Both the position numbers and the translations under genes were made by a program. The notes below the pieces were generated by a model that saw nothing but the letters and a program-made list of their open reading frames with translations, ran no database searches and was not told the DNA's origin. This document shows positions 30,587 through 31,264 of a stretch of DNA of 64,000 bases, piece after piece (the first letter of the stretch is position 1; every line of letters starts with the position of its first letter). Source of the DNA: a virus (Duplodnaviria > Heunggongvirae > Uroviricota > Caudoviricetes); IMG/VR virus record IMGVR_UViG_3300008453_000586. One strand, written 5' to 3'.

Positions 30587-31264
30587 ATGGGAAAAATTAA
30601 TTTAGAAATCCGAGACGCAGAAGGTGGAACCGATGCGAAGCTGTTGGTTTGTGAAATGCGTGACATTTACATTAAAACAGCGAAGAACAATAACATCGAC
30701 TGAATAATAACCGAAGATAGGTTAGGATTTGTTAGCATCTGACTAACGGGTAAAAACGCAAAAGAAATTTTTAAGAACGAAGTAGGGAACCATAGGTGGC
30801 AAAGAGTACCACCAACCGAAAGAAAAGGTAGGGTTCACACAAGTTCAATCACTGTAGCACTTATGGGAGAAAACGATTATAAGGAAGTAGAATTACATCC
30901 TAGTGAATATCGTTTGGAAACAACTAGAGGGACTGGCAACGGTGGGCAGCACAAGAACACCACAGATTCATGCGTAGTAGTCACACACATGGCCACAGGG
31001 CTCAAAGTAGTTCGAGATGGAAGGAATCAACACCAGAACAAAGAAGATGCCTTAAAAGAGCTTAAAAAGCGTGTGAACGAATATTACAGAACTGGTCACA
31101 TACAAGAAAGCATTGACGAAAGACGTGAACAAATAGGTAAAGGTGACAGAAGTGATAAACGTAGAACGTATAGAGTCAAGGATGGTGTGGTTGTTGACCA
31201 CATAACTAACAAGACAGCAAGTCTTAAAGATATATCCAGAGGTAGAATTGAACTTCTATCATAA
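30587..31264 (+). CDS. class-I release factor-like protein (PrfH/RF-H-like: codon-recognition domain plus GGQ domain) with two in-frame TGA codons
   Basis: A single frame from ATG 30587 to TAA 31264 translates to MGKINLEIRDAEGGTDAKLLVCEMRDIYIKTAKNNNID-TGA-IITEDRLGFVSI-TGA-LTGKNAKEIFKNEVGNHRWQRVPPTERKGRVHTSSITVAL...GTGNGGQHKNTTDSCVVVTHMATGLKVV.... These match the RF motifs lEIRaGaGG, GvHRvQRVP, GRiHTSa.TVaV and GGQHVNKTdSAvRiTH, including the catalytic GGQ. In-frame TGAs are at 30701-30703 and 30740-30742. There is no N-terminal domain 1, as in PrfH. Confidence 0.7.

Follow-up and report, generated by a model that had tools for sequence, protein, structure and literature searches.

Autoregulatory recoding of a release-factor gene is otherwise known only for prfB, which encodes RF2 and whose +1 frameshift site uses TGAC as a weak termination context (PMC12421855). 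A 2025 survey of 12,753 genomes never found TAG among 8,164 prfB motifs and found no programmed frameshift in prfA (PMC12421855). Here we analyzed a gene for an RF1-type release factor on a stretch of 64,000 nucleotides (the window) from the virus record IMGVR_UViG_3300008453_000586 (Duplodnaviria; Heunggongvirae; Uroviricota; Caudoviricetes). The gene, at positions 30587 to 31264, contains two in-frame UGA codons, and comparison with related sequences indicates that these internal stops are selected recoding signals, not damage. The lineage of large and huge phages that carries the device is widespread and includes the largest published phage genomes.

The locus resembles prfB in that a class-I release-factor gene is broken early by a stop in a weak context (stop followed by C), and relatives of the window gene carry the identical core, CTTT-stop-C. 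It differs from prfB in several respects: the phage protein is of the RF1 type, the site lies in domain 2 (near codon 52) whereas that of prfB lies at codon 26 of domain 1, relatives use TAG at 17 loci, the window gene has two in-frame UGAs and no shift, and no Shine-Dalgarno-like stimulator lies upstream of the site in the phage relatives.

In phage Qbeta, transfer RNA-Trp (tRNA-Trp) reads the leaky UGA of the coat gene and thereby adds a C-terminal extension, giving A1, to a minor fraction of a functional protein. The window gene is likewise a phage gene whose product, in a standard-code host, would depend on low-level decoding of UGA. Unlike the coat gene, it needs two internal UGAs to be read for any functional product, and it encodes a termination factor. 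ArfA and BrfA are back-up rescue factors that are made, from non-stop messenger RNA (mRNA), only when transfer-messenger RNA (tmRNA) fails. The similarity is that of a back-up factor whose mRNA is a substrate of the primary system, and the window gene lies near a tmRNA gene; the difference is that internal stop codons take the place of a non-stop mRNA, and there is no homology.

Phages with altered codes have been reported to carry RF2 when TAG is recoded and RF1 when TGA is recoded, with the genes for the code change written in the standard code (Borges et al.). The window shares with these phages (Lak, crAss-like and Jade) a release factor and a suppressor tRNA standing close together and a large tRNA set. 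It differs from them in that neither the window nor the related huge phage LR745206 has in-frame stops genome-wide, and in that the factor gene itself is interrupted. Moreover, the suppressor in the window reads TAG and the interruption is TGA, and RF1 with an amber suppressor is the opposite of the reported pairing. In the literature that could be searched, no report of a phage release-factor gene with such interruptions was found; RF1 and RF2 are listed in the huge-phage paper with no remark on any interruption. As far as that literature goes, recoding control appears to be new for an RF1-type factor of phages, as does its occurrence at one site both as read-through and as a frameshift.

The interrupted gene and its product

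Codon-by-codon translation of the frame from ATG 30587 to TAA 31264 revealed two TGA codons as the only interruptions and no frameshift, as a first-pass annotation of this DNA, made from the letters alone, had stated. The features of the gene are as follows.

30587..31264, + strand: recoded open reading frame (ORF) for an RF1-type release factor with domains 2-4 only, 225 residues, from the ATG to TAA 31262-31264
30701..30703, + strand: site 1, in-frame TGA, codon 39, context GAC TGA ATA
30740..30742, + strand: site 2, in-frame TGA, codon 52, context ATC TGA CTA
30809..30817, + strand: PPT tripeptide (PxT, RF1-type stop-codon recognition), codons 75-77, inside HRWQRVPPTE and followed by GRVHTS
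30941..30949, + strand: GGQ motif of peptidyl-tRNA hydrolysis, codons 119-121

In an alignment of 25 family members, P76, T77, E78, G119, G120 and Q121 were invariant and P75 nearly so. The conceptual product matched the Pfam domains PCRF (PF03462, 1e-16) and RF-1 (PF00472, 1.7e-23). Among the NCBIfam models it scored highest with prfA (191.9 bits, 1.6e-56), followed by prfB (99.7) and prfH (69.4). The prfA score of 192 lies below the cut-off of 400 that defines the full-length equivalog, and only positions 106-332 of the 347 in that profile were matched. Sequence searches of the PDB gave RF1 (8e-40) before RF2 (5e-22), with alignments that span residues ~88-312 of the T. maritima RF1 and 113-340 of the E. 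coli RF1. An AlphaFold2 (AF2) model of a family member that is 83% identical to the window protein had a predicted local distance difference test (pLDDT) score of 81. When this model was compared with known structures by Foldseek, ribosome-bound RF1 occupied ranks 1-13, and the PrfH structure 9mor_A appeared at rank 49, at 25% identity. Sequence and fold comparisons thus gave the same order, with RF1 first, RF2 second and PrfH far behind.

All homologues begin at a common M-x-K-I-x-L-E-I-R and have no domain 1, and tblastn with domain 1 of RF1 found no coding sequence for it in the window or in LR745206. A separate domain-1 gene or a split RF1 was considered and rejected on the same tblastn result; the HNH ORF upstream of the gene is a homing endonuclease and not a release-factor fragment. 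By these comparisons the window product is identified as an RF1-type class-I release factor without domain 1, the domain that interacts with RF3 and L7/L12.

The first-pass annotation had described a class-I release factor without domain 1 but with intact motifs, which holds, and had labeled it PrfH-like, which does not. PrfH has no domain 1 and keeps a codon-recognition-like domain and the GGQ motif (PMC6514570). The window protein is similar in these features, with a codon-recognition domain and GGQ. It differs from PrfH in that it stays far below the model's cut-off (166.65 bits for TIGR03072), retains the PxT motif and the Gln/Thr determinants of RF1, and has no gene for RtcB nearby (none was found among the neighbors or the larger ORFs scanned in the window). 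Together with the fold ranks, these observations leave the label unsupported; it is right only in the sense of the missing domain 1. The search of the product against PrfH and RF2 models that the annotation had proposed had prfA as its best model.

Recoding signals in related genes

Scans of viral and metagenome contigs yielded 75 related loci (41-88% identity; numbered here with the prefix L), with about 45 distinct homologues. One or two recoding signals lie within codons ~38-55 in 47 of the 49 distinct sequences tabulated; the two without any signal are L057 and the huge phage LR756511. TGA stands at both sites in more than 20 independent contigs. The published complete huge phages LR745206 (634 kb) and LR756501 (735 kb) also encode a domain-1-less factor with two in-frame TGAs at the sites. 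Because the same two TGAs recur at identical places in more than 20 independent assemblies, those of the window are not assembly errors, an explanation that the first-pass annotation had raised together with random decay. When the homologues were checked at both positions, conserved signals were found and not scattered disruptions.

At the first site the stop is always TGA, at codon -30 or -25 relative to a conserved His, and is followed by A or C; most homologues keep it at codon 39 or 5 codons downstream. The idea that site 1 replaces a conserved Trp of RF1 was not supported by the HMMER alignment. The second site is more varied. Its equivalent is an in-frame TGA in about 25 loci and an in-frame TAG in one clade (L019, L020, L022, L046, L047, L051 and L053). 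In L059 (367-1023), the closest relative of which, L060, has TGA, it is an in-frame TAA (ATA TAA CTG), the only such case. L059 is a single 2.4-kb contig in which the TAA could be an error or a dead copy; if it is real, all three stop codons are usable at site 2.

Other relatives change frame one codon downstream of site 2, at TG(T/C) CTT TAG CGG in 17 loci and at TGT CTT TGA CGG in L025 and L052; a variant in L070, GGT CTT TGA CGC, is located at the first site. CTTT followed by a stop and C is the slippery core of the prfB +1 frameshift. The codon read after the shift in the relatives is AGC (Ser) or GAC (Asp), and prfB likewise reads GAC. The contrast with prfB that the first-pass annotation had drawn thus holds for the window gene itself, but close relatives use just such a shift at the same place. 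No purine-rich, Shine-Dalgarno-like stimulator was found 3 nucleotides before the CTTT in the relatives, where the upstream sequence is, for example, GCC CAT CTA TGT. The superficially similar GTC TTT AGC in L001, L026 and L027 is ordinary coding sequence and not a shift site.

The annotation had also suggested that homologues be checked for sense codons at the two positions. Some have Lys, Arg or Cys at the second site (AAA, CGA or TGY), but most have stops or shifts, and TGG was absent from both sites in the 49 distinct sequences. The absence of TGG, together with the interchangeability of the stops, suggests selection for a stop or shift as such and not for a UGA-encoded Trp. In nearly all cases the nucleotide after an internal stop is C or A. 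The PPT motif is constant across the recoding types; only L025 has a change near it, with Ser for Gln three residues before the motif.

Bypass of the stops by other routes was also considered. Re-initiation after stop 2 was rejected, as no start codon (ATG, GTG or TTG) occurs between 30743 and 30863; the Met at 30863 is not conserved, and a product that starts there would be without the PPT motif. Matching take-off and landing codons for ribosome hopping were found in L006 only.

Insertion of selenocysteine at UGA might be suspected from the frameshift-type sister clade (L011, L013, L016, L021 and L024), in which both TGA positions of the window are Cys codons (TGT or TGC). We consider it next to negligible. 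No conserved hairpin or selenocysteine insertion sequence lies downstream of either UGA: RNAalifold found 0 conserved pairs near the stops, and the single-sequence fold had z = -0.89. A search with Rfam found no tRNA-Sec in the window, and TAG, TAA, CGA, AAA and a frameshift all occur at the site. Visual inspection suggested a 5-bp GUUAG/CUAAC stem near the stops, which was not conserved. The alternation of TGA with TGY at the sites may mean only that they are one mutation apart. In many relatives a tRNA-Cys(GCA) is a conserved downstream neighbor of the factor gene; it was not found in the window.

Two premature stops are the usual sign of a pseudogene, and on long contigs (47-372 kb) the gene calls are fragments of 133-184 residues, which would suit a dead gene or an assembly error. 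However, the stops are identical in many independent assemblies, the motifs are intact, there are no other stops or frameshifts, and the ratio of nonsynonymous to synonymous substitution rates (dN/dS, Nei-Gojobori) is ~0.1 with saturated dS. We therefore regard decay or error as extremely improbable; the first-pass annotation had likewise argued against decay. In more detail, dN/dS was 0.03-0.24 over the 38 codons before stop 1, about 0.1 for most pairs between the stops, and 0.06-0.14 after stop 2; dS was often above 1. The low dN/dS before stop 1 indicates that the N-terminal segment is translated and constrained in the same protein. In the AF2 model, residues 1-60 belong to the folded core (pLDDT 86-94) and make up three strands of domain 2, including the first, together with the recognition helix; the stop positions fall within the strands at 38-45 and 48-55.

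A neighbor-joining tree of the recoding-free C-terminal 150 residues showed in-frame and frameshift types interleaved, and the sister clade of the window gene (~85% identity) is of the CTT-TAG-C type. This interleaving indicates that the device has been exchanged repeatedly and hardly ever lost. Gene callers currently truncate or mis-code the factor gene. Database proteins that span the whole gene come from contigs of 1-5 kb only and have W at both sites, which is the product of code-4 calls on fragments.

Genetic code of the window and its relatives

The window has 33% GC and densely packed standard-code genes, most of which end in TAA. We asked whether in-frame stops are a general property of its genes. 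Scoring of flanks for coding potential by codon usage, with inspection of every TGA- or TAG-ended ORF, revealed no other + strand gene with an in-frame TGA or TAG in the window, and a genome-wide recoding of either codon there was rejected. The tail-fibre gene at 45137-47869, for example, has no in-frame TGA. About 6 ordinary window genes end in TAG. The first-pass annotation had noted that TGA is rare as a stop here, and this was borne out: the gene for the CCA-adding enzyme (35634-36827) is the only convincing TGA-ended gene, and it has a back-up TAA 6 codons downstream. In the relatives, TGA ends 3-19% of genes.

LR745206 (634,780 bp) was assembled whole from 13 blocks and examined in the same respect. 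Standard-code ORFs cover 91% of it, coverage did not increase when TGA was read as sense, and TGA ends 151 of 800 ORFs (19%). All 20 of the candidate in-frame TGAs were antisense to long ORFs, and the release-factor gene was the only gene detected with in-frame TGAs. None of its 59 tRNAs has the anticodon UCA, CUA or UUA. A tRNA(UCA) was also absent from the 17 tRNAs of the window and from the flanks of 25 relatives. Taken together, the 64-kb window and LR745206 demonstrate that the recoding is gene-specific and not an alternative genetic code.

These data bear on two explanations in which UGA is sense more generally. In one, UGA turns into a sense codon late in infection through a tRNA(UCA) encoded outside the window or through an activity that modifies the host, and the factor is a late gene written for that code. 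In its favor, TGA-recoded (Jade) phages were found by Borges et al. to carry RF1, and the same authors proposed that recoding serves timing; hardly any window gene stops at TGA, and the window is only part of the genome. We nevertheless think such a stage-specific switch unlikely, given the missing tRNA(UCA), the lack of in-frame TGAs in every other window gene including that for the tail fibre, and the frequent use of TGA as a stop in LR745206, which has no suppressor tRNA. The suppressor tRNA that does neighbor the gene reads TAG, not TGA, and a switch of this kind would not explain why relatives have TAG, TAA or a frameshift at this site.

In the other explanation UGA is a normal amino-acid codon of the host (code 4 or 25, as in Gracilibacteria and Absconditabacteria), the phage is otherwise code-11 compatible, and the two TGAs have no special role. 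For code-25 hosts, code-11-compatible phages are on record in which TGA is avoided and TGA stops have a back-up (PMC10746230), and the lone TGA-ended gene of the window, with its second stop, fits that description. In-frame TGA is confined to one gene, however, in 2 of its 225 codons, with 0 in the rest of the window; TGG never occurs at either site, where TAG, TAA and frameshift alternatives do, and the relatives end a sizeable share of their genes in TGA, as given above. Contigs of 230-370 kb would also be outsized for hosts of the candidate phyla radiation with genomes of ~1 Mb. The host is most likely a standard-code member of the Bacteroidota, because Shine-Dalgarno sequences precede only 2 of 61 window genes, the leaders are A-rich, the DNA ligase of the window is closest to those of Cellulophaga (Flavobacteriia) phages (53% identity), and Bacteroidetes hosts were predicted for the huge-phage relatives by Al-Shayeb et al. 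(PMC7162821). A host with native UGA decoding is accordingly very unlikely in our view.

Proposed control of factor synthesis

The reading that we favor, though with some reserve, is that the stops are programmed leaky-termination gates through which the phage factor would be made when release-factor activity is low. The first-pass annotation had suggested a regulatory role for the stops, which we judge the best reading of the pattern of conservation and selection. To make the full-length factor, ribosomes would have to decode two in-frame UGAs. In a standard-code Bacteroidota host, RF2 would usually terminate translation after 38 or 51 residues, and a near-cognate tRNA, most likely tRNA-Trp(CCA) from the host or the phage copy, would occasionally read the UGAs; read-through by this tRNA is plausible. 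The stops of the window gene stand in weak contexts, UGA-A and UGA-C. UGA is the classic leaky stop; its decoding as Trp, as cited in PMC7918605, reaches 6% in wild-type B. subtilis and 19-54% in prfB mutants.

Read-through would compete with host RF2, and near-cognate decoding would win where RF2 is limiting. With two sites in series, output would follow roughly the square of the read-through rate and rise steeply as termination capacity falls, so that the phage factor would be made mainly when host release-factor activity is limiting. The factor would then sustain termination at UAA, the stop codon of about 85-90% of phage genes and one that either host factor can serve. In the sister phages, the prfB-like +1 slippery site CUU-UAG-C, which occupies this position, would provide the same gating. 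Because UAG, the sensor codon in that case, is RF1-specific, the loop would be truly autoregulatory, a mirror of prfB, with the phage amber suppressor as a further possible competitor at UAG. Self-regulation is thus plausible in relatives that carry UAG or the frameshift, whereas in the window, with its UGAs, it is unproven. The earlier suggestion that synthesis of the factor requires read-through of a stop it may itself recognise is unsupported for the window gene, since UGA lies outside the expected specificity of the RF1 type.

Several observations weigh against this proposal, in which read-through by tRNA-Trp, dependence on the RF2 level and the physiological purpose are inferred. With a factor of the RF1 type and UGA as the sensor codon, the loop of the window gene is left open and would give no self-regulation. 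The sensor codons differ among relatives with no visible change at PPT, and the folding analyses above revealed no stimulatory RNA structure. The yield across two UGAs in series could be far less than 1% of initiations and perhaps too small to matter. Our survey of this phage covers 64 kb, and a UGA-reading tRNA or TGA-rich genes may lie elsewhere in its genome; the near-absence of TGA stops in the window would also fit a cell that generally decodes UGA.

Some of the same observations would suit a constitutive throttle, in which the stops or the shift site hold a toxic-prone factor at a low, fixed level and nothing is sensed. RF2 without its frameshift is toxic and overproduction of RF1 mildly so (PMC12421855), the type of sensor codon varies freely among relatives, and an RF1-type factor cannot feed back on UGA. 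On the other hand, a low fixed level could be had at less cost from a weak promoter or a poor start codon, read-through of UGA necessarily depends on competition by RF2, and the relatives converge repeatedly on the prfB motif CTTT-stop-C, which is known to respond to the level of the factor. A throttle is therefore improbable in our estimation.

A wider version of the gating proposal is possible but doubtful. Large Bacteroidota phages may run a termination homeostat or switch of their own, in which synthesis of the domain-1-less RF1-type factor is set by competition at a sensor codon among host RF1 and RF2, the phage factor and the amber-suppressor tRNA. The sensor would be an in-frame UGA, UAG or UAA, or CUU-UAG-C slippage, and factor and suppressor would form a circuit that senses and resets stop decoding. 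The factor might have a broadened, even omnipotent, codon specificity, which would explain the interchange of UGA and UAG sensors without a change in PPT.

If the gating proposal is true, this would be the first obligatory double stop-codon read-through that gates a translation factor of a bacterial virus. It would also provide a natural RF1-responsive frameshift or read-through sensor of use in genetic-code engineering, and would help to explain why release factors, tmRNA and suppressor tRNAs occur together in phages, namely for monitoring and takeover of host termination.

Genomic neighborhood of the factor gene

The factor gene is flanked by terminator-like hairpins and lies in an island of genes for translation and protein quality control.

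25363-26391: DnaJ
27304-28035: ClpP
28439..28816, + strand: tmRNA (Rfam RF00023, 58.9 bits; not called by ARAGORN in the window)
29878-30369: HNH homing-endonuclease ORF, between two tRNA-Met genes
30523..30553, + strand: terminator-like hairpin (30523-30546) and T-run, upstream of the factor gene, after tRNA-Met
31266..31297, + strand: terminator-like hairpin (31266-31287) and T-run, right after the TAA of the factor gene
SPFH protein gene: follows the factor gene, before tRNA(CTA)
33376..33448, + strand: tRNA with anticodon CTA (amber suppressor), 2 kb downstream of the factor gene; not cognate to TGA
33516-33857: Pth2
35634-36827: CCA-adding enzyme
38764-40472: array of 13 tRNAs
39204..39276, + strand: tRNA-Trp(CCA), candidate near-cognate reader of UGA

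The tRNA(CTA) is a conserved neighbor: many relatives, whether of the in-frame or the frameshift type, have one 1-4 kb downstream of their factor gene. Despite this tRNA, none of the window genes was found to contain an in-frame TAG. The window tRNA(CTA) carries G1-C72 and A73, and none of the other tRNAs there resembles it closely. Upstream of the factor gene by a few kb in two relatives of the TGA/TGA type, ARAGORN called tRNAs with irregular anticodon loops, 'ccta' or 'ct' (L017, 4487-4563; L018, 1645-1719), which may be unusual suppressor tRNAs.

The D-stem of the window tRNA-Trp(CCA) has a U11-A24 pair, and its D-arm, GGTGAAATGG.TATCAT, is identical to that of the LR745206 tRNA-Trp (343033-343104). 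U11-A24 is also the pair that the G24A change creates in the Hirsh UGA suppressor of E. coli; it may simply be normal in tRNA-Trp of Bacteroidota.

tmRNA genes lie upstream of the factor gene also in L012-L015. In the window, the position of the tmRNA just after ClpP and DnaJ suggests a phage-run module for tagging and degradation. The TAG stop of the HNH ORF abuts the first base of the downstream tRNA, and the layout of a tRNA-Met, a gap of ~0.7 kb and a long tRNA-Met recurs in L003-L010. Over-long tRNAs of 85-87 nucleotides (Met 30369-30455, His 39010-39095 and Ile 39363-39447) each adjoin a gene of normal length with the same anticodon and may have expanded variable arms or small introns. 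Finally, 42727-43689 and 52629-54038 encode an AAA_33 kinase in fusion with a tRNA-ligase CPD-domain protein, and an ATP-dependent ligase; together these suggest a Pnkp-like capacity for tRNA or RNA repair.

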